64,000 nt of DNA from Candidatus Omnitrophota bacterium (GTDB lineage Bacteria > Omnitrophota > Gorgyraeia > JAFGIU01), in assembly GCA_016929445.1 (NCBI GenBank), contig JAFGIU010000057.1, positions 3,867 to 67,866 of the forward strand. Direction: 5' to 3'. Made by a program: the position numbers and the translations under genes. Below, piece by piece: positions 28,628 through 46,452 of the stretch (position 1 is its first letter; every line of letters begins with the position of its first letter). The notes beneath the pieces are model-generated. The model had not been told where the DNA came from. It was given only the letters and a program-made list of their open reading frames with translations, and made no database searches.

Positions 28628-29032
28628 CTATGCACCCAGCATGGAGGATTCAATCGTCACTTCGATATTGGCCCCCACCGTGTTCACGGTAATGTCATAG
28701 GAACCCGTGGTTCCGCTGATGGTGAAGGTCTCGGTGAGCACGCCCCCGCCCGGGGTCCAGGAAGGATCTTCCGCCAAGAGCTGCTTGGCCCGTTCATAAC
28801 CCGAATCCGCCACATACAGGGCCTGCGCTTCGCGGTAGTTGGAGCGCGCGCCCTCAAGCTGCCCTGCTGAAATTGAGACCAGAACCATGCCCATGGCCGA
28901 GAAAAGCATCATCACAAAGACTGCGATGATGGTCGCAAAACCCGATTGGGAATTCAGCCCGCTCCGCTTGGGCACCGGACTAGGGTCTGAGGTTCCGCGG
29001 GAAAATAATGGAATTATAGGTAATCGATTCAT
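28628..29032 (-). CDS. Minor pseudopilin, GspK/PilX-like (lacks Glu5).
   Basis: The segment SGFATIIAVFVMMLFSAMGMVLVSISAGQLEGARSNYREAQALYVADSGYERAKQLL matches the GspK-type N-terminus. The start is uncertain (ATG 29032 or GTG 28975). Confidence 0.55.
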   Translation of the reverse strand: MNRLPIIPLFSRGTSDPSPVPKRSGLNSQSGFATIIAVFVMMLFSAMGMVLVSISAGQLEGARSNYREAQALYVADSGYERAKQLLAEDPSWTPGGGVLTETFTISGTTGSYDITVNTVGANIEVTIESSMLGA

Positions 29033-29477
29033 TTCCGCTCGCCACGGTTATGCTCACTCCGACACGCCAGATATCCGTCACATCCCCGACCGGCGTTGCA
29101 AGAGCGGCATTGTTTTCGTCAAAATAGGTAAAAAGCAGGTTGGTCACATTCCTGCACAGCGGGTCACTGTTCCGCTGCAACTCACTCCCGGACAGCTCAA
29201 ACACGATATTGACATCATCCCCGTCAAAGAAATCAAACTCATCCGTATCCGCCACCTGGATATCTGCCGCGTCATTCCCCCGCAAAGTCCGGATTTCGCG
29301 GGTCATCCAGTCGATGGCCATCTTGCCCATCACGGCTTCGTCATTGCGAAAGCTCACAAAAGACCACAGGTCGACCACGGCCAGCACCGTGCCCGCAACG
29401 CCGGCACTCAAAATGCCGGCCACAGCGATCACCGCGACCAGCTCGATTAATGTGTGGCCTTTGTGGTCTTTCTTCAT
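28980..29477 (-). CDS. Minor pseudopilin with a prepilin-type cleavage/methylation N-terminus, GspJ/PilW-like.
   Basis: MKKDHKG|HTLIELVAVIAVAGILSAG. Confidence 0.65.
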   Translation of the reverse strand: MKKDHKGHTLIELVAVIAVAGILSAGVAGTVLAVVDLWSFVSFRNDEAVMGKMAIDWMTREIRTLRGNDAADIQVADTDEFDFFDGDDVNIVFELSGSELQRNSDPLCRNVTNLLFTYFDENNAALATPVGDVTDIWRVGVSITVASGNESITYNSIIFPRNLRP

Positions 29478-30381: not shown

Positions 30382-31341
30382 TTATTTGGCCGAGGCCGTG
30401 TGCCACTGCCACATCCACTCCAGAGTCTCGCGAAGTGTGTAACGCAGTTCCCATCCCGTGGCCAGTTTGAAGCGGGAGCAATCCCCCAGGAGGATGGGCA
30501 CATCACTGGGACGCATGGCCTGAGGGTCGGTCTCCACCTCATTGCTCACACCCGCGATCCCGCTCACCATATCAACCACCTCGCGAATAGTCACCGTCTT
30601 GCCGGAACAAATATTGTAGACCTCGCCGGGTTCCGCCTTTTCCAAGGCCAGCCAATAGGCTCTCACCATATCGCGCACATCCGTGAAGTCCCGCTTTGCA
30701 TCCAAATTGCCCAGGCTGTAGCGCTCGCGCTTGCCCTGCTTGATCTCCAAGGCCTGCTTTACCACCTTGCCGCAAATAAACTCCGCAGGCCGGCGCACGC
30801 CCGTATGGTTAAAAGCGCGCGTGCGCACAATGTGCAACCCGTAAGAACGGTGGTACTGAAAGCCCAAGAGATCCTGCGTTACCTTGCTCACTCCATAAGG
30901 ACTCAAAGGCCTTAACGGATTCGTCTCTTTGACCGGGGTTTCCTCTTCATGCACCAAGCCGTATTCCTCGCTGCTGCCGCACACCAAAAACCGGATCGGG
31001 TAATCCGCCCGCCTCATGGCTTCCATCAGATTGAGTTGGGAGATCACGTTATTGTCCAAGGTCTCTTTGGGCGCAATCCAGGAAGTGGGAACGTGGGATT
31101 GAGCTGCCAGGCCGAAGATCCGTTCCGGCAGAGTCTCTTTCACGACGCGCTCAACAGCCGAGGGGTCGCGCAAATCACACTCATAGAGTTGGACCCTGTC
31201 TTCGAGATGTTCAATATTGTCATGGCGGGAACGCCAACGGATGGTCCCTACCACCTTCCAGTCGGGATGCTCTGAAAGAATATGTTCCGCAAGGTGGGAA
31301 CCCACAAATCCGGATATCCCGGTAATCAAGCAAGTTTGCAT
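30382..31341 (-). CDS. gmd: NAD(P)-dependent short-chain dehydratase of the GDP-mannose 4,6-dehydratase family (Gmd/Rmd-like).
   Basis: N-terminal GISGFVGSHL Rossmann motif. Catalytic SPYGVSKVTQDLLGFQY and the RAFNHTGVRR signature (compare the Gmd NHESPRR motif). ATG at 31341. Confidence 0.65.
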   Translation of the reverse strand: MQTCLITGISGFVGSHLAEHILSEHPDWKVVGTIRWRSRHDNIEHLEDRVQLYECDLRDPSAVERVVKETLPERIFGLAAQSHVPTSWIAPKETLDNNVISQLNLMEAMRRADYPIRFLVCGSSEEYGLVHEEETPVKETNPLRPLSPYGVSKVTQDLLGFQYHRSYGLHIVRTRAFNHTGVRRPAEFICGKVVKQALEIKQGKRERYSLGNLDAKRDFTDVRDMVRAYWLALEKAEPGEVYNICSGKTVTIREVVDMVSGIAGVSNEVETDPQAMRPSDVPILLGDCSRFKLATGWELRYTLRETLEWMWQWHTASAK

Positions 31342-31371
31342 AGGGCAGGCGCTCCGAGAGAATGAAACACA

Positions 31372-31875
31372 CTAGTCGACCCAAGTAAGACCTGTATTTT
31401 GGTTTACCGTAACCGTCCGGCTATTTCCACGGCAAGCAACCACAACGCTCCCGTTGGCCCCCAAATCCACTCCGGCAGCGTCCTGGGGCACACCCAATGA
31501 GCTGAAGACCAAGGTGGCGCCCCCGTCAAAATCAGCGCTGGTGATCGTGACATCCTGAAGCTCCGGGTCATTGGGGTAGTCTATGGTCATGGCACCGCGG
31601 GTATGCGGGCTGATCACATCCGCGCCGGTGGAGACCACGTAAACCTGGTAGGTTTCGTTCACCGTGCTGAAGGCAATCCCGATGGCTTCGTGGGTATTGA
31701 TGGCCAGCTGCTGGGCAAAGCGCAGATCCGACACCAACTTACGCGCCGCGCCCTCAGCCTGCATACTGTAATAACTGTCGAAACTGGGAATGGCCAGAGC
31801 GGCCAGGATACCGATAATGACCATCACCATGGTCAACTCGATGGCGGTAAAACCGGACTGTTTTCCCCTCCCCAT
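31372..31875 (-). CDS. Minor pseudopilin GspH/FimT/FimU-like.
   Basis: Start moved to ATG 31875 (MGRGKQSG|FTAIELTMVMVIIGILAALAIP). The downstream ...ARKLVSDLRFAQQLAIN... block is GspH-like. The track start at 32007 adds 44 residues that do not fit a prepilin. Confidence 0.7.
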   Translation of the reverse strand: MGRGKQSGFTAIELTMVMVIIGILAALAIPSFDSYYSMQAEGAARKLVSDLRFAQQLAINTHEAIGIAFSTVNETYQVYVVSTGADVISPHTRGAMTIDYPNDPELQDVTITSADFDGGATLVFSSLGVPQDAAGVDLGANGSVVVACRGNSRTVTVNQNTGLTWVD

Positions 31876-32027
31876 GACGCCCCCCCGGTAGTCCGTGGCA
31901 GGATTCGGAACCCAAGTAGTAAGTATACCATTACTTGCAAATCCGATCTCCGGCCATTCAAGCAGCCTGGGTAAAGTTGGAGGCACTGTTTCGCTTCTCA
32001 GGCCCAATGGAGATAGTCACTGCATCA

Positions 32028-32083
32028 GGGACGGTTCTCGCCTATTCTCTGCGTGGCCGAGAGTTATGCGAGAACCGTCCCCT
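32028..32083. repeat. Family-B hairpin copy: GGGACGGTTCTCGC, a 25-nt loop, then GCGAGAACCGTCCC.
   Basis: A perfect 14-bp inverted repeat. Confidence 0.45.
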
Positions 32084-32299
32084 TAAGCTGAAAACAACCC
32101 AGCATACGCTAAGGGAGGGGCGGCGCCTCACGGAGGAGCTCAAAATCGCTGAAGCCATAAATGTCTTTCCAGCGTGTGCCCTGCGATTTTGGGCAGCCCC
32201 CCGTACTTCACCTATTGCGGAACAGAATAGCTAAGGCGATCCGGAGTGAGGACGACCGGCCCGATCCTTGGGGATGCAGATCCAATACCCCTGCCAAAA

Positions 32300-32353
32300 G
32301 GGACGGTTCTCGCGTAAGTCCATGTTGCGTATGGAATTGGCGAGACCTGTCCC
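32300..32353. repeat. Family-B hairpin copy (imperfect): GGGACGGTTCTCGCG...CGAGACCTGTCCC.
   Basis: Read directly. It lies 3' of the TMTC-like gene's stop at 32415. Confidence 0.4.
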
Positions 32354-32414
32354 TGATTTAATTGCTGAACAAGGATCCCCACGCCTGCGGCTCGTGATGA
32401 CGGCTGCGGAGAAA

Positions 32415-33923
32415 CTACAACGCCTTCCGGGCGGCGGAGTGCAGGGGTTCGAATTCGAGGACTTGCTCGAAATACCCGCGCGCGATTTCGGAATTACCCA
32501 GGCAGGTCTCCACTTGGCCCAGCAAATAAAGCGTGTGCGTGGAACCGGGCTCAAGGCTGAGGGCCTGCATAAAGGCCCGGCGAGCCTGCGCATACCGCCC
32601 CCGCACCAAAAGGGCCACACCCAACTCGTGATAAGCCTTGTGCGAAGCGGGCGAATAGGTTGTTTCCAGCTCCCACATCAAAACCGGCTGGGCCCAAACC
32701 TCATTCCGCGCAAAAGTCCCGACTCCATACCCGGTCAACAGCAATGCCACGCACAAAATCCCCGCGGCATGCCAGGCCCTCTGCCGCTCCTGGGCGGTTA
32801 TGAGGATCCACACCAAACCCATACCCACAGCCCAATGCCAGGTGAGCCCGGATAGATACACCAAATGCTCCACCAAAAGTCCGCCAAAGGGCACCAAGTT
32901 TGAAACCGGCAACATCAGAATCCAAAACCACCCCAGCACAAAGAAGCCCAATCCATTCTTGCGCAGGCGCCAGAATAAAAACCCGTTGAGCAACAGAAAG
33001 AGCAGGCCGCCGATCACCCGCGGATTCATCACCGAATGCCGGATCGCAATGGTATGCAGTACGTGCAAATCGGAAGGAAAGAGCAGAAGCCTCCAGTATT
33101 CCAGCCACACAGGCGCCATGGTCATCATGGTCGCGTACAAACTGCCGCCCCAATACTCGCGCTGCGCTACGCTGTGCAACAGGTGAGTCCTCAAAGCCAA
33201 GTAGAACCCGCCCACGGCAAAGAAAAACAACCACACAGGCAAACGCTTGCGCCATGCCGCTTCCGGTCTCAAGCATCTATCCAAAAGGAGGAGGACAAGA
33301 GGCAAAACAATCCCGCTCTCTTTGGAGAGCAAGGAAGCACAATAGGCCAAAAGGCTGAAGACCAGAACTCCGGGCCTCAAGCCTTTCCCCTCAGTGGCCG
33401 CCAGGTATAGCAACAGGGCCAGGAGAAAGAAAAAGGCATAGAGCAAATCTCCGCGGGAAGCAATCCAGGCCACGGATTCGGTCTGAACCGGGTGCAGCCA
33501 AAAAAGCATCGTGCTCAGGAGCGACGCGCTCCAGTTCAGATTGGAATCCCGGGAGGAGAATTTAATCAGGCGCAGGGTCAGGAGAAAAACCAGGAGTCCG
33601 TTGGCCCAATGAAGGAACACATTGTGCAAGTGATAGCCCAAAGGATTCAAGCCCCAGAGGGAATAATCCACGGCAAAGGAGAGCGTGCGCAAAGGCCGCC
33701 ACAGGGCGTGAAACCCGAAGGCCGCGCTGTCCGGGTCACTAAAGAATCTCGTCCACACCTTGGACAGAGGGCGAAGGGCGTCGTTGGTAACGATGAATGA
33801 AAAGTCGTCGTAGAAAAATTCCCCGCGCAGAGCGGGCAAATACAAAAGGAGGACGGCCGACATCCCCGCAATCAGCCAGAAGATACTCCGTTTCTTCCAA
33901 CGGCCATATTCAATCGGTCGCAT
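32415..33923 (-). CDS. TMTC-like GT-C-fold membrane glycosyltransferase: DUF1736-like multi-TM N-terminus with a YDD motif, plus C-terminal TPR repeats. Paralogue A.
   Basis: MRPIEYGRWKKRSIFWLIAGMSAVLLLYLPALRGEFFYDDF..., 10 or more TM helices, and C-terminal TPR (YHELGVALLVRGRYAQARRAFMQALSLEP...). ATG at 33923. Confidence 0.75.
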   Translation of the reverse strand: MRPIEYGRWKKRSIFWLIAGMSAVLLLYLPALRGEFFYDDFSFIVTNDALRPLSKVWTRFFSDPDSAAFGFHALWRPLRTLSFAVDYSLWGLNPLGYHLHNVFLHWANGLLVFLLTLRLIKFSSRDSNLNWSASLLSTMLFWLHPVQTESVAWIASRGDLLYAFFFLLALLLYLAATEGKGLRPGVLVFSLLAYCASLLSKESGIVLPLVLLLLDRCLRPEAAWRKRLPVWLFFFAVGGFYLALRTHLLHSVAQREYWGGSLYATMMTMAPVWLEYWRLLLFPSDLHVLHTIAIRHSVMNPRVIGGLLFLLLNGFLFWRLRKNGLGFFVLGWFWILMLPVSNLVPFGGLLVEHLVYLSGLTWHWAVGMGLVWILITAQERQRAWHAAGILCVALLLTGYGVGTFARNEVWAQPVLMWELETTYSPASHKAYHELGVALLVRGRYAQARRAFMQALSLEPGSTHTLYLLGQVETCLGNSEIARGYFEQVLEFEPLHSAARKAL

Positions 33924-35622
33924 GACCCAACCCTTCCAGTCTCTTCAGATTCTCCATGGCCTCACGCGCTGCCAATGACCCGGGCTGGACCTCAACCGCC
34001 TTTTCAAAAAACCCCTGCGCTGCTACCGGGTCCCGCACATAAGCAGCCTGAATAATCCCGAGTTTGTTATAGCTGTAGGCAAAAGCGGGATTGGCAGAGA
34101 CCGCCCGGTAGTACTGGGCTTGGGCCCCCTTCCAGTCCCCCGCCTCTTTGAGCAAATCCCCGATCGCCACAAAGAGCTCTGCCCCGCCCGGCGCAAATTC
34201 CAATCCTTGTTCATAGGCAGAACGCGCTTCGGCGCGGCGCCCCAAACCCTCGAGGGCTTTCCCCCGCCCCAACCAAGCACCCGCGTTTTCAGGCTGCACC
34301 CGCAGCAGCTGCGCATAAAGATCCAGCGCCCTGCCGAATTCCTTCTCCTGCAAATGAAGCGTGGCCCGCCCCAGCAAAGCCTGCGGATGCCAGGGAGAAA
34401 CGCGCAACAAGCTGTCCAAACGTTTTTTAGCCGCGTAACTGTCCCCTGCCTGATAGAGCGCCCAACCCAAGCCAAACTGCGACTTCGGACTTTGCGGATA
34501 GTGGTAATAGGCGGCAGACCACAGCGCCAAATCATCGGCCCACACCCCTGACTGCCGCACTGTGAGAAAAGAAAAACCCGCAAAAGCAATGAGTGCCACC
34601 CCGCCGGCAACCTTTCTCCAAATACGGTGCGCTTTCAAGGCAGCGACGAGCCACCCGCAAAATTCCGCCACGAGCATCACAGCCCCGAACATGGGCAGAT
34701 AGAAGAAGCGCTCCGCCCCGGGATTGGCCACAGGATAGAGCCCGAGCGCGGGCACCAAGCCCGCACCCAGCCAAAGCAGCCCGGCTTGGAGACGAAGATT
34801 CCGGGACCGCGCCCGCAACACCCCACCCAAACCCAGGCCGGCCAAACCCAATGCCGCCCACAAGCGCCAATCACTCAGACCGACCACTGCCTCAAACTCA
34901 TGAACCGGCGACAAGGCCACCGGCCAAAAGAAAGACCGCAGGTAGTGCACCCAAACCCAGAGTCCTGTCCCCAGCGCCGTGACAAGACTCCCCCCGGGAT
35001 AGGGCGGGAGTGTATCTGCATGATGGCTCATCCATCCAAAACGCAAGAGCACATAAGCGCTGATCACCAGCCAGTACCCTAACCAAGGTTTCTTCCAAAA
35101 CCGCAATACAGAGTCAAAGGTTCCGGCCTGTTGATCAGCCGCCAACACAAAGCCCACTAACAAAGGTAAGACCAATGCCGATTCCTTGGACAACAAGGCC
35201 AAGGCCCCCACTAAATAAGCCCATCCATGCCGGCCTGCCAATGCCAAACGCACGGCCGCCAGCACCCCCGCCACCATCAACAAATCTTTACGGTAGGTCA
35301 CGCACATCACTGCCTCCGAAGGAAGCGGATGCACACCAAACAGCAAAGTCCCCACAAAGGCCGGGATCTCGCCAAATCCAAGGCGCGTGAGCAAGGACCA
35401 CACCAGCACACAAGCCCCCAAATGCCACAGAAGATTCACCAAGTGAAGGGTCCAGGGATTGAATCCGTACAAATGGACGTCAATCCAATACGAGAGGGTG
35501 GTCAGGGGGCGGTAGGTGAATTCACCCGAGGCATTAAAGTATTCCTGCGTAAACCACAGGGAGGGATCCAAGGGCACTCTCAGGATCTTGGCGTTGAGCA
35601 GGACTGAATAGTCGTCATACAC
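33910..35622 (-). CDS. TMTC-like GT-C glycosyltransferase, paralogue B. Its first TM helix is encoded upstream in the same frame with no start codon. An ATG with a good SD sits at 35710 in the +1 frame, so this looks like a frameshift (see finding).
   Basis: The ORF begins MYDDYSVLL (GTG 35622). In-frame upstream codons encode ...QRSFYFLIIALLGIAITYLPSLSNGF, which parallels the N-termini of the other paralogues. The in-frame stop is at 35788-35790. Confidence 0.65.
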   Translation of the reverse strand: MYDDYSVLLNAKILRVPLDPSLWFTQEYFNASGEFTYRPLTTLSYWIDVHLYGFNPWTLHLVNLLWHLGACVLVWSLLTRLGFGEIPAFVGTLLFGVHPLPSEAVMCVTYRKDLLMVAGVLAAVRLALAGRHGWAYLVGALALLSKESALVLPLLVGFVLAADQQAGTFDSVLRFWKKPWLGYWLVISAYVLLRFGWMSHHADTLPPYPGGSLVTALGTGLWVWVHYLRSFFWPVALSPVHEFEAVVGLSDWRLWAALGLAGLGLGGVLRARSRNLRLQAGLLWLGAGLVPALGLYPVANPGAERFFYLPMFGAVMLVAEFCGWLVAALKAHRIWRKVAGGVALIAFAGFSFLTVRQSGVWADDLALWSAAYYHYPQSPKSQFGLGWALYQAGDSYAAKKRLDSLLRVSPWHPQALLGRATLHLQEKEFGRALDLYAQLLRVQPENAGAWLGRGKALEGLGRRAEARSAYEQGLEFAPGGAELFVAIGDLLKEAGDWKGAQAQYYRAVSANPAFAYSYNKLGIIQAAYVRDPVAAQGFFEKAVEVQPGSLAAREAMENLKRLEGLGHATD

Positions 35623-35764
35623 AAAGCCGTTGGAAAGCGAGGGCAGATAGGTAATCGCGATGCCTAATAAGGCGATGATGAGGAAGTAAAACGAACGTTG
35701 GTGGGGACATAGATCCTTCGTCGCTTTTCTCCTCAGGATGACAGCAGAGTTTCTTGGCCTGACA

Positions 35765-37030
35765 CTAGGATTTCTTGGCTTTGATGATCAGCTCGGACCC
35801 CGCAACATAACGCACTTCCTGGATCTCACAGCCACGGCTTAGCAGTGCAGCCTTAAGACTGGCTTGGGTGTAGTGAGTCACGTGCTCATCCGCATATCCT
35901 CCCCGGTGCACCCAGCCATAAACCTTTTCAATCCACACCCACGAGATCCTGTCGTAGTCGGGCGTCCCCACAATCAAGGACCCGCCCGGGGCTGCCACGC
36001 GCACAAGCTCGTCCAGAATTTCTTCGGCATCCAAACAGTGTTCAATCACCTGTGAGCTAATGACGGTTTCAAAGAGATTGTCCGCAAAAGGCAGTCTTGC
36101 ACCGCTTCCCCGAAGCAAACGGGTGTTGGTTCGCCTCATGAAACGCAATTTACCCATGCTGGGATCCAAGCCAACAGCCAAAGGCAAGTCGACAAGGATC
36201 TTGCTGGAACCGCAGCCCACATCCAGGATGCTGGTGCCGGGCTTTACCAACTCGCGAATATGGCGGTGCCTTTGGCGCTGCCACCAACGCTGCAACGGGA
36301 TCCGGCTGTAAAAGGCCCTGAAATCATAGTCTGCGCATTGGATGGAATTGCGCAACTGCCACAAGGAGCCCAAGGTCTTCAAATAGGACCGGGCAAAGGA
36401 GATGAGACGCGCGTGCGTCCGGCCTTCTTTGCGCGGCCGGTATTCGAAGGGAACTTCCTGTAAACGCCACCCCCCCGCATAGATTTTGAGAAGCAGCTCT
36501 TCCAACAGATCAAAATCCCGGCCCTGCGTTTGAATCTGCCGCAGGACTGAACTCCGGTACATGCGGAAGCCGCTGGACATGTCCTTGACCCCGATCGCCA
36601 AGACATGGCCATAAATCACATTTAGACAACGACTTAGAACCCACCTAAACCAGGGCATTTCCGCGCTGCCCCCGCTCACATAACGTGAGGCAATCACCAC
36701 ATCCGCGCGATCGCGCCAATCCCACATGCGCGCGATAAACTCCGGATCGTGCGAAAGGTCCGCGTCCAAACACAGAACATACTCCCCGCGCGAACGTTCA
36801 AACCCCTCCCTCAAAGCATTCCCATAGCCGGGGTTTGCCTGCACAAAAACTTTTGCGCCTGCGGCCTCGGCCTCCGCACAGGTTCCGTCTATGGAACCGC
36901 CATCGATGACCACCACTTCCCAGCTCAGCTCCATCCGGCTGAGCACTTGCGAAGTCCGTTCAATCAGCGGCCCCAGATTCCCGCCCTCGTTATGGGCTAA
37001 GATGAGAATGCTGAGATTCAACTCACTCAC
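35765..37030 (-). CDS. Bifunctional protein: GT2 polyprenyl-phosphate glycosyltransferase (Ppm1/DPM1-like) fused to a C-terminal class I SAM-dependent methyltransferase.
   Basis: LSILILAHNEGGNLGPLIERT...CLDADLSHDP is the GT2 DxD region. ILDVGCGSS...GGSLIVGTPDY is the methyltransferase part. I propose a GTG start at 37030 with the SD GGAGAGG, forming a GTGA overlap with the upstream stop. Confidence 0.75.
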   Translation of the reverse strand: MSELNLSILILAHNEGGNLGPLIERTSQVLSRMELSWEVVVIDGGSIDGTCAEAEAAGAKVFVQANPGYGNALREGFERSRGEYVLCLDADLSHDPEFIARMWDWRDRADVVIASRYVSGGSAEMPWFRWVLSRCLNVIYGHVLAIGVKDMSSGFRMYRSSVLRQIQTQGRDFDLLEELLLKIYAGGWRLQEVPFEYRPRKEGRTHARLISFARSYLKTLGSLWQLRNSIQCADYDFRAFYSRIPLQRWWQRQRHRHIRELVKPGTSILDVGCGSSKILVDLPLAVGLDPSMGKLRFMRRTNTRLLRGSGARLPFADNLFETVISSQVIEHCLDAEEILDELVRVAAPGGSLIVGTPDYDRISWVWIEKVYGWVHRGGYADEHVTHYTQASLKAALLSRGCEIQEVRYVAGSELIIKAKKS

Positions 37031-39447
37031 TTCTTGCGTCCTCTCCACAGGGAAACTCCCCCTGCAAGCAATATCCACACAAAAACCGACCCCAAGGCTC
37101 CTGCCGAGACCGTTGCCAAACGCTGAAAATCATAAGAAGCCACCCACTGGCAATGAGTGACGGATTCTCCTTGGGGAAGCATCCAAACAGGGAAGCCCGG
37201 CGCAAGCATGCCAATGACAGCACGCCTTTCATTCACGCGAATTTGCCAGCCTGGATCCGCCGTCATTTTCAGAAAAGCAGCGCCCCCCTCCGGCGCCTTG
37301 GAAAGCATGGAATGCCGGCCCCCGCCCCCCACATTCACCCACTGTACCTGAGGCACTGCAACATCGTCCAGCTCCTGAGGCAACGGGCCCAGTTCACGCC
37401 ACAACCCGGGCACAGAGGGCAAACCCGGTTCCAAGGCCGTGTAAGAACTCAAGCGAAGATTCTGATTCGAGTAAACAGAAATCCCCTTGTCCGCGCAACG
37501 CTGCAACAGCGTCCTCCAAAACGGGCTCTCTATCCCAAACTGTCCGGGCTCCAAAAGCACGAGCGCGCGCACCTTGCCTCCTTCTATCCAGGTTTCAAAG
37601 TCCCGAGGCCGGGGGCTTAGCCGCACCAAAGGCCAAACCTGCCGGTAGCCGCCTTCGCGCATAGCCCACATAAACCAGCTGTGGCTGAGTTCGTACCAAT
37701 CCCGCAGATTGGATAAAACCAGAACAGGGGAAGCCCAGAGAGGATCAGCCAGACTTGCGGGGACGCTTCTCTGAGTGAGAGCCAGACGATCCAAGAGAAA
37801 CGTCCCTGGCGCACTGAGTCCGCCGAGATGAGTGACTCCATAAAGATCCAAAATCCACGGATGCTCCTCTGCCGCGTTATCCGGCCACCAAAACTTCGGC
37901 GTCCCTCCCCAATTCGACGCGCTGCTCGAGCCACGGGCCTTGGGATGGGACAAGCCCGAGAGCGTGGCCAGGTCCTCCAGCCCCGGACTCCGCGCCTCAT
38001 ACAACACGCGCGCGCCCGGATTCTCTGCCCGGATTTGGAGAAGCTCCCCGGTCACGGCCTCCATAAACTGCTCTGCGTCGCGCTGTCCCAATTCGCGCGC
38101 CGTGCGCAGGCGCTCATACAATGCCGGCGCTGAAAGAACCAGGATCAAGGTCAAACACAAGACAATGCCTTCGCGGGTGCGCGCCACCATGGGATTAACT
38201 GTCTCCCTGTAAAAAAATTCCCGCACCCAGCGCGTCAGCGCCGTCACCACGGAGGCGGCCAAAACTGCGGTGCCTATCTGCAGGAGAAACACCGCGCGCC
38301 ACTGCATAAGTTCCCCCCACATAGGAACACGGTTCATCCCCGGAATCTCATCGGCGCCCAATATCAGCGCCAAAGAAACACACAGAAGAGACAGAACCAT
38401 CACCTCACCTGTCTCCCACTCCCCGGGTCTGCACAAGTAATAGACCAAACCAAGGACCGCCATCCCCGTCAGGACAGGCCAGCGCCCTTCACTAAGAGTC
38501 GGCTGCAAAAATGCCGGCCCCAATTGGATCCACGTCTCCGGCAAAGCCACGCCTTCGAAAAGCGCTCCCAAAAACCAGGAATGCAGGAGCGCCGGAACCG
38601 ACGGGCTCTGCCACAAGCCTGTAAAACGATAGAGTTCAGGCTGAGGGATAACTAAATGGAATTGGCTATAGGCAATCGCGGGCCACACCCACAAGCACCC
38701 TATAGCCAGAGCAAACACGAAAACTAAAAATAATTTGAGGACCGGCCATGCGCTTCGCCGGCCCTTGCGGGAGAGCAAAATGAGAACTTCAAGGATCGCC
38801 ACCCAGCAGAGGAAGAAGGCGGCAATGGGATGGGCCAATAGCAAGAGTCCCGTGCCCAAAGCAGCCCAGGCCCAGGAGCCTTTGTGCCAAAGGCAGCGGT
38901 GCAGGGCGCTAAAGGCCAGACAAAAGAGCACATAGCCCAGCAACTGCGCTTGCAATCCAATTAATGTGTAGGCTTCCAGGCTGTGGCCCCAAGGATTGAA
39001 GAAGAGCAAACAGAAAAGACTCGCGCCCCCGGCAGTCAAGGCAGGCAAATCCAGCGACCGGAGACACCGGTATAATGCCAGGGGAAAAGCGCTCCACAAG
39101 ACCACCGTCGAAAGCCAAACCCATACCACAGCCCCCAGCAGGGGAAACACCGCGCGCAATCCCCCCGCAATCAAAGCATGCAAGGGCGGATAAGCGCTCC
39201 ACAAAGGCACACCCAATCCCGCAGTCCAAAAACAAAAGGGGTGCTTGTGGGCCAGGAATTGGCGGGCAAAGGCCTCCGCATGAGCGGTATGAAAGTAGAA
39301 GTCCTCCGAAAGCACAGCGTGAGAATGGCCCAGGGCTAAGGCCCCCAGGACTGCGGCCAAAATGCAGGCCAAAAAAGCCAAAGCCCGCCCTGCCGTGTGA
39401 TCCCAAGCATCGGCTTCGGGAAAGGGCGCTCCCATCACCGGCAACAT
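37027..39447 (-). CDS. Large polytopic membrane protein with a C-terminal periplasmic beta-rich domain. YfhO/GT-C-like; family uncertain.
   Basis: About 800 aa with 12 or more predicted TM helices. The C-terminus (...GWQIRVNERRAVIGMLAPGFPVWMLPQGESVTHCQWVASYDF...) resembles a YfhO-type tail. The start is ambiguous (ATG at 39447, 39465 or 39435). ATG 39447 lies 1 nt after the upstream stop. Confidence 0.55.
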   Translation of the reverse strand: MLPVMGAPFPEADAWDHTAGRALAFLACILAAVLGALALGHSHAVLSEDFYFHTAHAEAFARQFLAHKHPFCFWTAGLGVPLWSAYPPLHALIAGGLRAVFPLLGAVVWVWLSTVVLWSAFPLALYRCLRSLDLPALTAGGASLFCLLFFNPWGHSLEAYTLIGLQAQLLGYVLFCLAFSALHRCLWHKGSWAWAALGTGLLLLAHPIAAFFLCWVAILEVLILLSRKGRRSAWPVLKLFLVFVFALAIGCLWVWPAIAYSQFHLVIPQPELYRFTGLWQSPSVPALLHSWFLGALFEGVALPETWIQLGPAFLQPTLSEGRWPVLTGMAVLGLVYYLCRPGEWETGEVMVLSLLCVSLALILGADEIPGMNRVPMWGELMQWRAVFLLQIGTAVLAASVVTALTRWVREFFYRETVNPMVARTREGIVLCLTLILVLSAPALYERLRTARELGQRDAEQFMEAVTGELLQIRAENPGARVLYEARSPGLEDLATLSGLSHPKARGSSSASNWGGTPKFWWPDNAAEEHPWILDLYGVTHLGGLSAPGTFLLDRLALTQRSVPASLADPLWASPVLVLSNLRDWYELSHSWFMWAMREGGYRQVWPLVRLSPRPRDFETWIEGGKVRALVLLEPGQFGIESPFWRTLLQRCADKGISVYSNQNLRLSSYTALEPGLPSVPGLWRELGPLPQELDDVAVPQVQWVNVGGGGRHSMLSKAPEGGAAFLKMTADPGWQIRVNERRAVIGMLAPGFPVWMLPQGESVTHCQWVASYDFQRLATVSAGALGSVFVWILLAGGVSLWRGRKK

Positions 39448-39448
39448 C

Positions 39449-39835
39449 TCAGCGCGCGGGAACATAGGCCCTCGTTTTGAATTGCCCGGCCCGGCTCCAG
39501 CGCAGAGCTTTTTCCTCCTGCCAGGCACGGACCTGCCAGAAGTACCCGGTCTCGGGCTCCAAGGCGGTCACATAGATTTCCGGAGCTTGTATCTCTTTAT
39601 TCTCCAATGTCGCGGGGACTTCTCCGGGCAAACCCTGAAAAATTTGGACTTCGTATTGAATCTCTTCTCCGGGCACGGGATTCCAAACAAGGTGAACCGC
39701 ATCCGGATTGAGCAGCGCCCCGTCTGCCGGACGAATCAGCACAGGCTTGAGCCAAAGCATTTGCTGCAGGTAGCAGCCCAGGAGCCAGCTCAGAAACAAC
39801 AATACCACCAGCCTGGATAAATGAGGCACTCTCAT
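39449..39835 (-). CDS. Small membrane-anchored or secreted protein with a fibronectin type III-like domain.
   Basis: ATG 39835 (MRVPHLSRLVVLLFLSWLLG) forms an ATGA overlap with the upstream stop. FN3-like W...W pattern (LVWNPVPGEEIQYEVQIF...YFWQVRAW). Confidence 0.5.
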   Translation of the reverse strand: MRVPHLSRLVVLLFLSWLLGCYLQQMLWLKPVLIRPADGALLNPDAVHLVWNPVPGEEIQYEVQIFQGLPGEVPATLENKEIQAPEIYVTALEPETGYFWQVRAWQEEKALRWSRAGQFKTRAYVPAR

Positions 39836-42276
39836 AACATCGGCCAGTTCTTTTTCCAAGAGTAAAGCTCTTTTAGCGCCGCGCGCACCTGGAGCGATTC
39901 CGGTTGTAAACCTTGGGCCTGGTGCAAAGAGGCAAGTGCCTGGGGCCAACGCCCGAGCACCGCATATAAGCGGCCCATCTCCAAAAGAGCCGCAATCTGT
40001 TCCTCGGGAGACAGACCCTTAAACTCATTTTTCAACACAAGGATGCGGCGCTGCAACCCTTCCTCATGGGCTTGGCGCTTGTTCAAAACCAAAGTCCTCC
40101 CGAACACCAGGCCCCCGTGGTAAAACCAGCGAGGATCCTGGCGCGCCAACGCATTGCCTACCCGCTGCATGTATTCTTGTTGCGCCTCCAAAGCCGCCCC
40201 GTAGTCTCCGGCCTCTTCGTAAAGGTACGCCAGATTAGCCCACGCATCCACAAACCAGGGTTCCTTTTCCACCACCGCGCGGGTCAGTTTAACAGCGGTA
40301 TCCAAATCTCCGTCCGCCCAGGCCCAGTAGCCTTGGTTGCAACGCGTGCGGAGACGCGCCAAACCACTCTCGCCCATCTCTGTGCGGGGATCCGGCATGA
40401 CCGGGGCTCTCAGATAGGATTCCAGCATGCGGTGGTGATGGGCCAGACGCATGTGTTTTCCGGGCGCACCCTCCCCGGACTCCAATTCCAACCAGGCCAA
40501 GTCCTCAAAGACCCGGTACGAGTGCGGGGACTCTGCGGCACGCCGCATTTGCTTGAGCGCTCCGCTGAGATTTCGCTCCCGGCGATAGATATCCCCCAAA
40601 ATCTGCGCTCGGCGGCTGTCCAGCCCGCTCTCCCCTTCCAGTCCTTGGAGGAGCAGGGTCTTGGCCTTATCCAATAAGCCTTCCTCTCTATAAAGAGAAA
40701 CCAAACGCAGGCGTGCCTCAGAATTTTCCGGGCCACTGCCCCAGACTGCCAGCGCCTTTCCCAAGGTAATTTGATAGACCTTCCAGGAATAGCCGATGTA
40801 GTCCACAGGTTCAAAATCGAGCAACCATTCAACCTGTCCCTCGCTCCCCAAATACCCCCTCAAACTGTTCACACTCGCCAAAACAAGACCGGTGGCGGGC
40901 TCAGGCGGTTCCAAACGAACGCCCGGATGATCGGCAATATAGGCTTCCACAAAACCCAGGTCCTGTTGCCAGTCCAGATTCGAGTCGATCAACCACTGGT
41001 CTCCCCTTTCCGGCCCGCCCGCCGCACGGTTAAAGAAGGCCAAGTAATGCGGATAAATCAATGCCGACTCCAGGACAAAACCAATCAAACACAACCCGGC
41101 CAAGACAGAAGACCAAAGCCGCCTGGGGGAATCTCCTGCCCTTGGCAGGATAGCGGCGGCAATAAACAGAAAGGCAAAGGGATAGATCAAGAGCACATGG
41201 CGCAGGCCGATTTGGAACTCGCTCACAAAACTGAAGTAAACAAAAAAGACCAGGGGCGGCCATAACAAAAAGGCCCGGTCTGTCCACCTCAGCCGGCCAA
41301 TGCATAAAAGCGATAGCAGAAACAGGATGAGTAAACTCAGCGGCGTTTTCACGGCCATTGCAACCGCATAGTAATTCGGGAATCCTTTGACTGAGAACTC
41401 GCCCATCAAATAATTCAAAAAGCCGTATTCGGTAAAGTATTTCTGAAAATCCAGGCCGTTAAGATAGGGCAAAGGAAAGAACCATAGCAGCCCTCTGCCC
41501 AATAAGGTCTGGGATAAGTTGTCGAAGAACGCACTCTGCCATAAGAAACCGGCCTTGGAGCTAAAGGCCCCTTGAAACCCATAGCCCAAAACCAAGATGA
41601 AAAAGGACACGCCCAAGAGGATGCCCGCGGCAGAGAGCATTCTCCAAACAGAGCGCCTTTCAAGAAGCATGGCCCAGAGGAGCAGGGGGAGCAAAACCCC
41701 GGACATTAAGACAGCCGTGTATTTGCTCAGCAGGGCCAAGCCCAAATAAACTGCAGACAAGAGGAGTTGATTGAGCCGGTGTTCAGCCGCAAAACTCCAC
41801 AAGTGATAGGTACTCGCCAAGGAGACGCTGACAAAACAAATATCCGGAGTCACCAAGCGGCTGTGAGCCAAAAGGTTGGGACTGAAGGCCCAAAGTGTTA
41901 AGACAAATAGAGCCCCGCGGCGGCCGTTCAAGCGCCGCGCCCATAAAAAGAGATAAAAACCCAGCAAGAGCCCCCAGACCAAATTCAAGAGGCGCGCGGG
42001 CAGAAGCCGGTCCGCCAAATCCTCCTGCCCCCAGCGCAACGGCAACCAACCATGCACATACGCAGTCAAGGGCGCATGCATCACATTGACCCGCTGCTGC
42101 CAGTGCGAGCCGCGCACCAAACTCACGGCCGACCGCAAATAGAGGTCCTCGTCGCTGGTCATGGACTTGACCGACAAACTGGACACAGTCTGAAAAAGCC
42201 AGAAGAACACTAGGAAGGCAAGAAGAACCGCAGTCCAGACACGTTGATTTGTGCTTTCTTCTTTGGGTTGTTCCAT
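39832..42276 (-). CDS. PMT_2/ArnT-like GT-C glycosyltransferase (GT39/GT83 type) with C-terminal TPR repeats.
   Basis: Start moved to ATG 42276 (MEQPKEESTNQRVWTAVLLAFLVFFWLF), which overlaps the upstream stop as TGATG. Motifs SDEDLY, ...SKYTAV and LLAHSRLVTPD fit the PMT_2 family. TPR repeats at the C-terminus. Confidence 0.75.
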   Translation of the reverse strand: MEQPKEESTNQRVWTAVLLAFLVFFWLFQTVSSLSVKSMTSDEDLYLRSAVSLVRGSHWQQRVNVMHAPLTAYVHGWLPLRWGQEDLADRLLPARLLNLVWGLLLGFYLFLWARRLNGRRGALFVLTLWAFSPNLLAHSRLVTPDICFVSVSLASTYHLWSFAAEHRLNQLLLSAVYLGLALLSKYTAVLMSGVLLPLLLWAMLLERRSVWRMLSAAGILLGVSFFILVLGYGFQGAFSSKAGFLWQSAFFDNLSQTLLGRGLLWFFPLPYLNGLDFQKYFTEYGFLNYLMGEFSVKGFPNYYAVAMAVKTPLSLLILFLLSLLCIGRLRWTDRAFLLWPPLVFFVYFSFVSEFQIGLRHVLLIYPFAFLFIAAAILPRAGDSPRRLWSSVLAGLCLIGFVLESALIYPHYLAFFNRAAGGPERGDQWLIDSNLDWQQDLGFVEAYIADHPGVRLEPPEPATGLVLASVNSLRGYLGSEGQVEWLLDFEPVDYIGYSWKVYQITLGKALAVWGSGPENSEARLRLVSLYREEGLLDKAKTLLLQGLEGESGLDSRRAQILGDIYRRERNLSGALKQMRRAAESPHSYRVFEDLAWLELESGEGAPGKHMRLAHHHRMLESYLRAPVMPDPRTEMGESGLARLRTRCNQGYWAWADGDLDTAVKLTRAVVEKEPWFVDAWANLAYLYEEAGDYGAALEAQQEYMQRVGNALARQDPRWFYHGGLVFGRTLVLNKRQAHEEGLQRRILVLKNEFKGLSPEEQIAALLEMGRLYAVLGRWPQALASLHQAQGLQPESLQVRAALKELYSWKKNWPML

Positions 42277-44402
42277 CAATACCGCCTGCGCCTGATGAAG
42301 GCCACGGCCCCCAACAGCAGCCAAAGGGAAGGTGCAATCAGAAATCCCAGTGTCACACTCCTGGGCCGGTAGTCCATTCGCACCGTGTGCTGGCCACTGG
42401 GCAAATATACTGCGCGCATCAAATAGTTGGCGCACAAAAGCTCTGCTGGCTCGCCGTCGAGAGTAGCCCACCAGCCGGGATAGTAGGTGTCCGAGACCAC
42501 CAGAAATCCCGGGTCCTCGGACACTGTATCAATTATCAAAGAATGAGGATTCGAAGACACCACGGTGGCTGCGGAAAACCCGGGCGAATCCACCTGCGGC
42601 AGATCGATCGGCGCCTTATCCCATTCCAGGAAGACTTCTTCCTCATAAGCCCGCCCTTTGCTCAATAACTGAGTCAGGGCGGATTCGTCATCAAAAACCA
42701 CTTTGGCCCGGTGCACCACCCAAGCCCGGGGGCGCGCGCCCAAACTCCCCCAGACTTGATAGCGTGAATTCTGAAAAATAACAGGCAAAGACGGATCCGG
42801 CGCCGGCAAGGGCGAACGCTTGTCACTCACCCAGAGCCGTGCAGACAACAAGTCAAAATCCTGCACTCGAATTTTTTTGAGAGTCTGGCGCTGCGCCTGG
42901 GCTGTGTCTGCGGGCAGTCCCTGGATCCGGTTCAAGTAAGCAGACAAGGGACCCGGCATCAAGCCCTCATTGCCGAGACAATTCTGCAAACCTTCAAAAG
43001 AACCGCCGTTAAATCCGGGCCAAAGCACACGCCCGGATCCCACATAAGAGCGAAGAAAGTGCCCGAGTTCCGGATCGATGCGATAAGGATGAGCTTCCAT
43101 AACGCGCACAAAAGAGGCCCCGTGAAAAAAGAGTTCCATCACCAGGCACACGGCAATGACTCGTGTCAGCACACGCGCCCTATCCTTTCCCGCCCCCTGG
43201 CTCACTCCTTCAAAAAGGCGCTGCATCCCCAGGGCTGCCAAGAAAGAAAGCGCAAAGGCAAACACATACAGCCAACGGCCCGGCACACGAAAGTATCCGT
43301 AGGTCGGCACCAAGCGACGGACCCATCCTTCCAAAGGGAGCGCAGGACCCAGTGCCAATGCTAAGGAGATTAGAGCCAGGAGCGCGGCAGTCATTTGAAA
43401 GGGTCTTCTTCGGCCCAGTAACCCGGCCAAGATTAACAGCAATGCCACCCACCCCGTATAGATCTGCGGGGCCCCAGACGCGCGTCCCTCCGCCCGGGCA
43501 GAGGGAGCGGGGTTCTCCGTTCCGGAGGGAGGCATCACCAAACCCAGGAGATTTTGGGGAGCCAGCGAATTCTCCCGGGAGGAAACCACATGAGTCAGCA
43601 AAGAACGATCACTGAGATGCGCATACTCCAAGGATGGCAAGACGCGCGGAGCAGCCAAACCCGCCGCAAGCAAGGCAATGCCCGCGGCCACAAAAAAAGC
43701 TTCGCCCAATCCATGCCAAATCTCCGAAGCCTCCTCCCCTTGCGCGCCCACCCCAATCAAATATAAGAGCCCGGCTACCCCCATCATCCAAGTGCCCTGA
43801 GAATGCCCGGTCATGCACAGCAAGGCCAAAGCGATCGCCGCCCAAATCGCGGCGCCCAAAGTGCGCCGGATCACATATCTTCGAAGCGCCGCCCACCACC
43901 AGGGACTCATCCAGTACACGGAAACAAGCCCGATGTGGCCGGCAAAGAAGCTTTGCAGTACATATCCGTTCCCCACAAACACGAACACACCGATCGCGCT
44001 GGATAAGGGATTCAACTCACTCAACCGGCAGAGCCAGTAAAATCCCAGGGCACCCACAAGCAAATGCGTGAGCAAACTCAAATTAACGACACGCTCCAAG
44101 GACAGCGGCGTAAACACCCAAACCAAATTCAAGGGATCCACAAAACTGAAAGTCGCGGTGGGAAGGTACGGAACCCCGCAAAAGATATTCGGATTCCACA
44201 AAGGCAGGCTGCCCAGACTCAAGGCTTGCCGGCCCAAATTGACCAAGGCAAGTTTTTGGTAAACCAGATCCAGCCCCAAAAGCACGCGCGGGCCCAGAAG
44301 CACCCACCCCAAGCTCAACACAAGAAGGGCAAGAATCGTGAGTACAGGCACTATGTCTTGGCGAAGGGAACGTTCGTGGGTCATTGAGCCGCTAAGAGTC
44401 AT
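42276..44402 (-). CDS. YfhO-family GT-C-like membrane protein, paralogue 1.
   Basis: The N-terminal LPLWNPNIFCGVPYL motif and the C-terminal ...YYPGWWATLDGEPAELLCANYLMRAVYLPSGQHTVRMDYRP followed by a TM helix match the YfhO architecture. Probable start at ATG 44402 or 44384. Confidence 0.7.
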   Translation of the reverse strand: MTLSGSMTHERSLRQDIVPVLTILALLVLSLGWVLLGPRVLLGLDLVYQKLALVNLGRQALSLGSLPLWNPNIFCGVPYLPTATFSFVDPLNLVWVFTPLSLERVVNLSLLTHLLVGALGFYWLCRLSELNPLSSAIGVFVFVGNGYVLQSFFAGHIGLVSVYWMSPWWWAALRRYVIRRTLGAAIWAAIALALLCMTGHSQGTWMMGVAGLLYLIGVGAQGEEASEIWHGLGEAFFVAAGIALLAAGLAAPRVLPSLEYAHLSDRSLLTHVVSSRENSLAPQNLLGLVMPPSGTENPAPSARAEGRASGAPQIYTGWVALLLILAGLLGRRRPFQMTAALLALISLALALGPALPLEGWVRRLVPTYGYFRVPGRWLYVFAFALSFLAALGMQRLFEGVSQGAGKDRARVLTRVIAVCLVMELFFHGASFVRVMEAHPYRIDPELGHFLRSYVGSGRVLWPGFNGGSFEGLQNCLGNEGLMPGPLSAYLNRIQGLPADTAQAQRQTLKKIRVQDFDLLSARLWVSDKRSPLPAPDPSLPVIFQNSRYQVWGSLGARPRAWVVHRAKVVFDDESALTQLLSKGRAYEEEVFLEWDKAPIDLPQVDSPGFSAATVVSSNPHSLIIDTVSEDPGFLVVSDTYYPGWWATLDGEPAELLCANYLMRAVYLPSGQHTVRMDYRPRSVTLGFLIAPSLWLLLGAVAFIRRRRY

Positions 44403-46452
44403 CCTTGGCCCCGCCCCAAACACGGCGGACCCGCGGAAATGACAGCATGAGTAACAGACATATTGTAACGAGTGTAATAGCAATACCTAAGAAAACTGAG
44501 CGCGAGCAGTATCGGAATTCCACCCGGTGTTCCCCGGCAGGGACCCGGACCGCGCGTATCAGCCCATTGGCAGGATAGACGTTAACAGGACTTCCGTCGA
44601 GCCCGGCCCTCCACGCCGGGTCATACGGCTCCGAGAGCACCAGCCAGCAGGGCGAAGAGGCGCGGACCCCCATCTCCATCTCATGAGGGCTCTCACTCAG
44701 GAATTCAATCTCCCCCTGCACCCAATCCGCGGACGCCGGCCACTGGCCCTCGCCCTCCAAATAAAGAGTCTGAACCGGATCAAATCCGGGCTTTGCAATG
44801 CGTTGCCAAATTTCCCGGCGGTCCCGCACCCAGCGGGCCTCAGGGATCAACCAAGCCCGCGGGGAAGTTTGAATACGGCGGTAAAGCGCCAAGCTCTCTG
44901 CATTCAGCACTTTTTCCCATTCAGAATCCGGAGGCTCCACATCCGCAGATTGAATCAGATACCTCAGATTCAGGAGCTGCCAGAGCGGGTGACCGGGATA
45001 GCGCAGGTATTTCAGATAGCTGACGGGCCGGTCCAAAGGCGCCCCTTCGAGAGTGTTCACAAACTCCGCATAGCGCTGGGTGGCAATGGGCTTGTATCCG
45101 TTAACCAAAGGAATTCCGGCCAACATCTCCAAATTTGTGAGGGCCTGGCCCTGCCAAAGCACCCGAAAAGGTTCCTCATCCTGAAGCAAAGCCCGGACGA
45201 TTGAATCGGGCATCTTAAAGATGCCGGGATGCGCGGGTTGGATATACCGGCTCCCAAAAGAGTGCATGTCCAGGACCACCACGAGCAGAACCATGGACGG
45301 AAGAATCTTCGAGCGCCGATAAAACTCGGGTTGCTCGAAAATACGCGAACAAAGCACGGCCCCGCTCACAGCGATTCCCAAATTCCAAAAGAGCAGGAAG
45401 CGGCCCGGTTCCCTAAAAACGGAAAAACCCGGCAGATATTGGTAAAGAAATCCGTACACGGGCGTGTGATTACCCAGGGCGAGCAGAAGTCCCCCGAGCG
45501 CCATAAAACACCAGAGCCTTGCGGCGGGCGGGCCGAAAAAAAGCGCAAGCAATCCCAGGATTGTGAGAAAAACCCCGGCATAGGCGGTCCGCTCCCACCA
45601 CAGGCCCGCCCCCCGGTAGCGGGTAGTGATTTGATCGCCCAAGGCCCAAGGCTGAATCAAAGTAATGAGTTCCCGCGGCGCAAGGGAGCGCGCTGCTGCC
45701 TGGTCCCAGCTCAAGCCCCCGGCCCTCTCGGAATCTTTCTGGAATTCCATCGCAGGCATCCACTGTGCCGCACCCAGGCCTGCAAAAAGTCCAAAGGCCA
45801 GGAATAATCCCAGAACGGAGTGCCCGGTTTTCGCCCTGTCTCGCTTAAGAAGCTGCGCAAGAACGAAAATACATAGAAAACCCGCAGTCATCAAGCTGAG
45901 CTGGACATGGCCGGTATAAAGCATGAGTCCCAAACACAAACCCACCGGAACCCAACTCCTGATCCGGTTCTTGCGCAAAGCCCGCAGAGTCCACATAAAA
46001 ACAAAGGGCACCAAAGCCGCTGTGTACACTATGTCAAAGTGCCCGGCAAAAAGACGCCCTATTTGGTGTCCTCCGAATCCAAAAGAAAAACCCGCCATCA
46101 AAGCTGCGGCTCTGATCCCGCCCGTGCGCCTTACAAGACGGTAAGCCCCCCAAGCTCCGAGAGTGAGAAAGAACGCATGGAGGAAGTTCAGTTTCTGGAA
46201 AATTGAAAGGCCCGGCAGCAAGAACTCGGCACCCAGGCGCGGCAGCAAGGTACGGATATCCGTGGCTGCCCAAAAGGGCATGCCCCCGTGCACAAAAGGA
46301 TTCCAGAGCGGAAGTTCGCCGGCCCGCAAACATCGCAGCGCAAACTCCTGATAGCAGAACAGGTGGCGGTCCAGTGTATATAGAGGAAGGCCTGAGGCAA
46401 ACAAGGGTCCCAGGTACAAGAGCGGAAAGAGCAAGAGCAGAAGTGCGATCAC
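44392..46452 (-). CDS. YfhO-family GT-C-like membrane protein, paralogue 2.
   Basis: ...GELPLWNPFVHGGMPFW... and C-terminal ...YDPAWRAGLDGSPVNVYPANGLIRAVRVPAGEHRVEFRY. Probable GTG start near 46452, overlapping the upstream stop as GTGA. The track's ATG at 46575 overlaps the upstream gene by 127 nt. Confidence 0.65.
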   Translation of the reverse strand: MIALLLLLFPLLYLGPLFASGLPLYTLDRHLFCYQEFALRCLRAGELPLWNPFVHGGMPFWAATDIRTLLPRLGAEFLLPGLSIFQKLNFLHAFFLTLGAWGAYRLVRRTGGIRAAALMAGFSFGFGGHQIGRLFAGHFDIVYTAALVPFVFMWTLRALRKNRIRSWVPVGLCLGLMLYTGHVQLSLMTAGFLCIFVLAQLLKRDRAKTGHSVLGLFLAFGLFAGLGAAQWMPAMEFQKDSERAGGLSWDQAAARSLAPRELITLIQPWALGDQITTRYRGAGLWWERTAYAGVFLTILGLLALFFGPPAARLWCFMALGGLLLALGNHTPVYGFLYQYLPGFSVFREPGRFLLFWNLGIAVSGAVLCSRIFEQPEFYRRSKILPSMVLLVVVLDMHSFGSRYIQPAHPGIFKMPDSIVRALLQDEEPFRVLWQGQALTNLEMLAGIPLVNGYKPIATQRYAEFVNTLEGAPLDRPVSYLKYLRYPGHPLWQLLNLRYLIQSADVEPPDSEWEKVLNAESLALYRRIQTSPRAWLIPEARWVRDRREIWQRIAKPGFDPVQTLYLEGEGQWPASADWVQGEIEFLSESPHEMEMGVRASSPCWLVLSEPYDPAWRAGLDGSPVNVYPANGLIRAVRVPAGEHRVEFRYCSRSVFLGIAITLVTICLLLMLSFPRVRRVWGGAKDDS

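Follow-up and report, generated by a model that had tools for sequence, protein, structure and literature searches.

A gene whose annotated reading frame starts exactly at the catalytic motif of its protein family raises the question of where its translation begins, and of what has become of the codons that precede this motif in its relatives. The gene concerned, called gene B in what follows, lies on the minus strand of a 64,000-nucleotide (nt) stretch of a contig from a metagenome-assembled genome (MAG) of a Candidatus Omnitrophota bacterium; "the window" denotes the whole of this 64-kb stretch. Gene B is a normal member of a bacterial TMTC-like family, whose proteins combine a GT-C-like membrane glycosyltransferase with periplasmic tetratricopeptide (TPR) repeats, and it is one of four such paralogues in the window. 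Its public record (MBN1586777.1, 570 amino acids (aa), named "tetratricopeptide repeat protein", with MBN1586776.1 and MBN1586778.1 as neighbours) corresponds to an open reading frame (ORF) which runs from the GTG at 35622-35620 to a stop at 33910 and begins with the residues (M)YDDY, the DD pair being the catalytic motif.

Family homology, codon usage, the position of an ATG and a structure model support a one-base disruption of the frame between the true start of gene B and the codons of its first transmembrane (TM) helix, TM1. The native start most probably lies upstream of the gene body and one base out of frame with it, and the annotated GTG is almost certainly not native. Among the four TMTC-like paralogues, this one has a frame break of a single base at its very start, which is nothing out of the ordinary. 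The reading preferred here, which is held tentatively at a probability of roughly 0.45, is that the extra base is truly present in the sampled population, so that one of four redundant paralogues would have been lost or crippled very recently. The elements at the 5' end of the gene are the following:

33910..35622, minus strand: gene B body, a GT-C-like membrane domain (DD, YRP, SKE and AER motifs) followed by C-terminal TPR repeats; intact

35620..35622, minus strand: annotated GTG start of gene B, without a Shine-Dalgarno (SD) sequence; it is the valine codon of GF-V-YDD

35623..35706, minus strand: 28 in-frame codons without a start (PHQRSFYFLIIALLGIAITYLPSLSNGF), which encode TM helix 1 and a Y.P.L..GF motif ahead of the DD active-site motif

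35703..35706, minus strand: CCCC run (plus-strand GGGG), where the extra base is most parsimoniously placed

35708..35710, minus strand: ATG, the probable native start of gene B; +1 frame, one base out of frame with the gene body

35714..35719, minus strand: SD-like GAAGGA, with a 3-nt spacer to the ATG at 35710

35615..35710, minus strand: 31-codon out-of-frame ORF (MSPPTFVLLPHHRLIRHRDYLSALAFQRLCV, then stop), from the ATG at 35710 to a TGA at 35617-35615

35788..35790, minus strand: in-frame stop TGA, the upstream limit of the open frame of gene B

35765..37030, minus strand: upstream neighbour, a GT2 glycosyltransferase-methyltransferase fusion (MBN1586778.1), whose stop lies 54 nt before the ATG of gene B

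Upstream of the annotated GTG the frame of gene B reads ...CPHQRSFYFLIIALLGIAITYLPSLSNGF and stays open back to 35787; followed as far as the TGA at 35790-35788, it reads ...ILRRKATKDLCPHQRSFYFLIIALLGIAITYLPSLSNGF. No ATG, GTG or TTG occurs in this frame between the GTG at 35622 and that TGA. The preliminary description of the locus had stated that the ORF from GTG 35622, beginning MYDDY, lacks a TM helix common to all the paralogues, and that the in-frame codons above it encode this helix and an LPxL motif with no ATG, GTG or TTG back to 35788-35790. Both statements agree with the sequence, and the former agrees also with an alignment of 61 family members. The description had further placed an ATG at 35710 behind GAAGGA, in the +1 frame and with the right spacing. 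The position and frame of this ATG, which is the first start codon in its own frame after the TAG of the upstream gene (35767-35765), are correct, while the judgement of its spacing was generous, since the 3-nt spacer compares with 5-10 nt; the spacers at clear SD sites in the window measure 5-9 nt for AGGAGG, AAGGAG and GGAGGTG and 6-10 nt for AAGG(A). The frame opened by the ATG had been expected to terminate after about 30 codons, and the exact figure is 31, with the stop TGA 2 nt beyond the annotated GTG.

Deletion of one C from the CCCC run at 35706-35703 yields MSHQRSFYFLIIALLG..., the beginning of a 597-aa TMTC-like protein with both GT-C-like and TPR parts, and the resulting N-terminus matches that of paralogue A (MRPIEYGRWKKRSIFWLIAG), as had been proposed. 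Any single-base deletion within about 35707..35696 mends the frame likewise. The frame break falls within the first four codons, so that 95% of the protein is still contained in one ORF, and the annotation carries no flag. No terminator and no minus-strand promoter match was found in 35500..36000.

The assignment of the stranded codons to gene B depends in the first place on homology. In the alignment of gene B with 60 relatives, which include the three other paralogues in the window, a helix followed by L.Y.P.L..GF precedes the DD pair in all 60 relatives, and the upstream codons of gene B align at this place. The TM1 stretch of gene B (FYFLIIALLGIAITYLPSL) has a mean Kyte-Doolittle hydropathy of 2.11 and aligns with TM1 of 60/60 relatives, none of which (0/60) lacks TM1 or starts at the DD motif. 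The aspartates D31 and D32 are kept in 59/60 and 58/60 of the other sequences (97-98%). A profile hidden Markov model of the N-terminus, made solely from the pre-DD segments of the other 60 members, was tested on 1702 six-frame segments of the window; the upstream segment of gene B scored 10.5 bits (E = 0.056 over the 1702 segments), compared with 7.1 for the best unrelated segment, and this match sits at the sole position where a match is expected.

The coding character of the stranded codons was evaluated with a codon-usage model trained on the other genes of the window. Codons 35706-35623 score +8.0 bits in the frame of gene B, where true-frame windows have a mean of 11.1 +/- 5.4 bits and off-frame control windows lie at about -14 +/- 7 bits, with scores above 6 bits in 0/577 cases for each off frame. 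The frame of the ATG at 35710, that is, the 31-codon ORF, has the score of a typical off frame, -13.7 bits, and the in-frame stretch above the C run (35763-35707, 19 codons) scores -9.9 bits. The change from -9.9 bits in this upstream stretch to +8.0 bits at 35706-35623 indicates that coding character starts at about 35707, directly after the ATG.

An AlphaFold model of the 598-residue translation of gene B from 35706 has a predicted local distance difference test score (pLDDT) of 92.8 and a predicted template modelling score (pTM) of 0.91, and residues 3-25 are modelled as a helix, at pLDDT 91-98, which forms part of the fold. An ATG with an SD-like 5-mer ahead of it occurs in the window at a density of 8.4e-4 per nt per strand, and the chance expectation of an SD-preceded ATG in the wrong frames is about 0.02 by our own arithmetic (~27 off-frame positions in an interval of ~40 nt). 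Given the homology, the codon usage and the position of the ATG, the simplest account is one extra base between 35707 and ~35696, for which the C run is the obvious place. The frame break itself is read directly from the sequence; its exact place is what we infer from these considerations.

The three other paralogues in the window show what the 5' end of an undisturbed copy looks like:

32415..33923, minus strand: paralogue A, intact, with TM1; starts MRPIEYGRWKKRSIFWLIAG, and its ATG overlaps the end of gene B

49680..51341, minus strand: paralogue, intact, with TM1; the nearest paralogue to gene B (29% identity, E = 3e-31)

51343..52980, minus strand: paralogue, intact, with TM1; likely start ATG 52902

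BLASTP of gene B against these three gave E = 3e-31, 4e-22 and 6e-21, and the earlier count of four paralogues is confirmed by these values. The N-terminus of each paralogue consists of a short charged tail, a hydrophobic helix and the motif YLP.L..(G/E)F(V/F)YDD. The 545-aa ORF at 51343..52980 is a clear paralogue of gene B by BLASTP, though it has no Pfam match; at E <= 0.001 none was found for this ORF or for the 833-aa ORF at 37027..39528 (minus strand).

In TMTC proteins the most N-terminal hydrophobic segment is a true TM signal anchor that puts the DD loop outside the cytoplasm; the loop after TM1 carries the strictly conserved DD motif, which must face the non-cytoplasmic side and which is the counterpart, by alignment, of the active site in two GT-C enzymes of solved structure, ArnT (D55/E56) and Pmt1 (D77/E78), and the further motifs of the family are YRP in loop 1, K-E after TM5 and AER before TM10 (PMC7801869). 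The membrane domain of gene B contains FTYRPLTT (P67 invariant), LLSKE (K174 invariant) and GAERFFYLP (R333, Y336), and several Pfam TPR families match its C-terminus at residues ~410-555 (e.g. TPR_16, E = 6.6e-14). The feature of a TM helix followed by DD, which characterizes the family, is present in gene B solely if the 28 codons above the GTG are read. Gene B also aligns with P0054, a TMTC2-like protein of the sponge Oscarella lobularis, from TM1 through the DD motif to the TPR region (BLASTP E = 1e-25). A search of 5.8 billion proteins with gene B returned the annotated protein itself and then distant relatives of <=31% identity. The membrane domains of gene B and the three paralogues gave no match to Pfam PMT_2 (PF13231) or TMTC_DUF1736 (PF08409), even at E <= 10; among the 61 aligned relatives, 18 have a PMT_2 match and 13 a TMTC_DUF1736 match.

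Gene B resembles the TMTC1-4 protein O-mannosyltransferases, the bacterial TMTC-like proteins and the PMT_2 clan in having a signal-anchor helix with DD in the first outer loop, the motifs YRP, (L)SKE and AER(x)LYLPS, about 10 further helices and C-terminal TPR repeats. Unlike TMTC1-4, it comes from a bacterium (an Omnitrophota MAG), in which a large envelope-glycosylation cluster holds it and three further paralogues, tandemly scattered. This predicted glycosyltransferase differs from its TMTC and PMT_2 relatives in falling below the Pfam thresholds for PMT_2 and TMTC_DUF1736 and in having its start codon out of frame.

The consequence for the product can be set out on the premise that the native start of gene B is the ATG at 35710. 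An extra nucleotide before the codons of TM helix 1, most simply the fourth C in the run 35706-35703, would throw this start out of frame. Ribosomes that start at the ATG would then make a 31-residue nonsense peptide and stop at 35617-35615, and the body of the gene would be translated from the SD-less GTG at 35622 alone, perhaps via reinitiation. In the product of the GTG, helix 1 and the conserved GF would be missing and the catalytic DD motif would come first; a protein truncated in this way would, judging from the topology of the family, probably be wrongly inserted in the membrane and probably be inactive.

The condition of the gene body and that of the assembly both bear on whether the extra base exists in the organism. 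Gene B keeps 38/44 of the columns conserved in at least 80% of the family, one of the six misses being the absent initiator Met, and the intact paralogues keep 35/44, 38/44 and 34/43; the codon usage of the body is normal, at 0.40 bits per codon. The body is thus undecayed, and an old pseudogene is therefore excluded. Among the real genes in the window, only gene B has a long stretch ahead of its start that looks coding yet offers no start codon. A scan of the window for unannotated coding signal found no other frame break or frame switch, and the extra coding-like segments which it brought up are either genuine small genes or the antisense shadows that plus-strand genes cast. A 4-base homopolymer is unremarkable in itself, since the window holds 747 runs of 4 nt, together with 293 of >=5 nt and 15 of 7-8 nt, and no gene is disrupted among the 293 runs of >=5 nt. 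Because no other frame anomaly occurs despite these 293 homopolymers, the assembly is not prone to homopolymer errors; a generally error-prone assembly was rejected for lack of other pre-start coding regions or frame anomalies. In an independent Logan k-mer assembly, contig L001 (run SRR13394437) corresponds to 32188..34041 of the window, which spans paralogue A and the last 118 nt of gene B, with zero differences over 1854 nt. The contig is 100% identical, and the run therefore contains this population; no mention of the run was found in the literature. The break of the contig inside gene B at 34041 may possibly be due to low coverage or strain branching.

A real, recent insertion is put slightly ahead of an assembly or consensus artefact as the more likely explanation, a ranking which comes from priors and not from a test. 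Selection tolerates a lesion such as a frameshift at the 5' end of a paralogue that is redundant and has an alternative start further down, and short-read consensus errors at a 4-nt run are rare, a run of this length being short for a homopolymer error when short reads are accurate. Should the extra base instead be an artefact, which is quite possible though we would not lean on it, there are three C's in the organism, its 597-aa gene runs intact from the ATG at 35710, and the fourth C was introduced by sequencing, assembly, polishing or a minority strain path. Such an origin would suit a gene that is otherwise perfectly intact and conserved as well as its paralogues, that gains a textbook N-terminus when one homopolymer base is removed, and that is known from a MAG contig with a single public record, local indel errors being something that does arise in MAG assemblies; it is made less probable by the shortness of the run, by the lack of a second frame break in 64 kb despite the 747 runs of 4 nt and 293 of >=5 nt, and by the identity of the adjoining 1854 nt in the independent Logan assembly, which indicates accurate reads. 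Several observations weigh against the preferred reading of a real insertion with loss of function. An assembly or consensus error would account just as well for a gene body that shows no decay at all. Contig L001 ends at 34041, 1.66 kb before the site of the C run, and the exact gene B protein has a single public record. A search for the exact DNA pattern with a variable C run gave no match in genome or metagenome contig collections; a protein-seeded search for the locus gave no relative in genome contigs and one 30%-identical TPR match in metagenome contigs. The GAAGGA-ATG spacer is below those of the other SD sites in the window, which makes the case for the ATG at 35710 good, not perfect, and the inactivity of the truncated product is deduced from the topology of the family. 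An exact-protein look-up found neither P0001 nor the 31-aa peptide on record.

The remaining explanations take the four-C sequence as correct and keep gene B in use. The gene could be functional through a non-canonical in-frame start (ATC 35739 or CTG 35736, giving (M)LRRKATKDLCPHQRSFYF...) or through a TM1-less product from GTG 35622, but this is improbable. While the in-frame stretch is open back to 35787, its residues ILRRKATK carry the positive charge that would suit the cytoplasmic side of TM1, and the stop of the 31-codon ORF overlaps the GTG (2 nt past it) in a manner that could allow translational coupling or reinitiation, there is no SD before the ATC, the CTG or the GTG, and codon usage in this frame above the C run resembles that of non-coding sequence: the 19 codons score -9.9 bits, and the 11 codons that start with the ATC, among them the rare AGG, AGA, CTA and TGT, score -3.45 bits. 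Functional use of the GTG product would moreover require a TM1-less or DD-starting form of a kind found in 0/60 relatives, would sacrifice the conserved GF just before the DD motif, and would dispense with a helix which in this family serves as signal anchor and brings the DD loop to the non-cytoplasmic side (PMC7801869). An upstream start at ATC or CTG was judged unlikely because of the missing SD and the non-coding codon usage. Regulated expression, which we consider very unlikely, would involve a programmed frameshift at codons 2-3 (+1 at UCC-C, or -2 through re-pairing of tRNA-Pro from CCA to CCC) or phase variation of the C run, in which slipped-strand mispairing would switch one of four surface-glycosylation paralogues on and off. 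It is hardly to be expected that the four-C sequence is real and full-length gene B is made at a low, regulated level via a ribosomal slip or C-tract switching; if this were true, one of four paralogous envelope glycosyltransferases in Omnitrophota would be a variant under on/off or dimmer control. The needed frame change does fall within a C-rich stretch directly after the start codon, the SD-like GAAGGA precedes the UCC codon by 6 nt, and 5'-end homopolymer switches in glycosyltransferase genes are a known strategy of some pathogens. In E. coli reporters, the highest frequency of +1 slips on CCC-C-type sequences is seen beside the start codon (PMC6335274), and the position of the C-rich site matches this hot spot. 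At the site AUG UCC CCA CCA, however, the CCC-C quadruplet is out of the ATG frame, a slip from UCC to CCC keeps 2/3 base pairs, short of full re-pairing, and the next codon, CCA, is a sense codon; neither a stop nor an evidently slow codon follows the shift codon. No stimulatory RNA structure was found in 35730..35600: its folding energy is -22.2 kcal/mol, the mean of the shuffled sequences being -22.95 (z = 0.26), and 123/200 shuffles fold equally well or better. Contingency tracts usually reach >=7 nt; the tract of gene B, at 4 nt, falls short of the length of a contingency locus (about >=7 units), and the 15 runs of 7-8 nt in the window are elsewhere. None of the three paralogues (0/3) has an equivalent 5' arrangement, and no orthologues turned up among the 5.8 billion proteins or in the contig collections, the nearest homologue being 31% identical. 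The slippage-dependent expression considered in the preliminary description thus finds no support, given a run of only four bases and no stimulatory structure.

Gene B is like other frameshifted genes in annotations, whether recent pseudogenes or assembly indels, in that its start codon has been stranded, the gene caller has settled for the next GTG in frame and the body is intact; nothing in gene B differs in kind from such cases. It is like the phase-variable lgt genes of Neisseria and the genes of Campylobacter and the fut genes of Helicobacter in that a 5' homopolymer sets the frame of a surface-glycosylation gene, but its tract measures 4 nt where theirs measure ~7-14, and its paralogues have no such tract. 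Like prfB (CUU-UGA-C) and antizyme (UCC-UGA-U), gene B would need a +1 shift, here at UCC, with an SD-like element a few bases upstream; unlike theirs, its A-site codon is neither a stop nor demonstrably slow, no downstream structure is present, and the site is at codon 2.

The main consequence of the frame break concerns annotation, since the GTG start of MBN1586777.1 conceals that the gene codes for a membrane glycosyltransferase of TMTC-like type with a stranded first helix. A real extra base would make the locus a record of the very recent loss of a copy in a redundant envelope-glycosylation family; an artefact would mean a correction to a MAG. Neither outcome alters what is known of frameshifts, GT-C enzymes or Omnitrophota.

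Gene B stands in a long run of minus-strand envelope and glycosylation genes. The region 30382..57213 (minus strand) is a very dense envelope-glycosylation cluster which includes the four TMTC-like GT-C and TPR paralogues and the GT2 and methyltransferase fusion at 35765-37030, and its other members include the following:

30382-31341, minus strand: GDP-mannose-dehydratase-like gene

39832-42471, 42276-44483, 44392-46575 and 47186-49612, minus strand: four larger PMT_2/YfhO-like membrane proteins

52905-54017, minus strand: radical SAM protein

53948-56125, minus strand: GT9 and methyltransferase fusion

56122-57213, minus strand: second radical SAM protein, with a SPASM domain

Between the genes for an 879-aa and an 833-aa membrane protein lies a 166-codon ORF (39449..39949, minus strand) with strongly coding-like codon usage (20.1 bits in a 30-codon window); it is therefore probably a real small gene, and it extends into the maximal ORFs to either side.

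At 59353..59685 and 59713..60040 (minus strand) lie two type IV pilin-like paralogues in tandem (FTLIELVMVIVILGILAAVAIPRF...), and a long plus-strand ORF that overlaps them (59251..59775) appears spurious. Further pseudopilin genes with an N-methylation motif are found at 28980..29477 and 31372..31875 (minus strand), one of them with a GspH domain. At the beginning of the window, a giant minus-strand ORF (1..6414) has its start near 6414 (MKNNHRQRKIALKLIALCLGF..., signal-peptide-like) and leaves the window at its first position, so that its product has at least 2138 aa. A full-length c-di-GMP-I riboswitch (RF01051, 50.2 bits) lies directly upstream of it at 6505..6595 on the same strand, and the giant ORF is likely to encode a surface or adhesin protein controlled by c-di-GMP.

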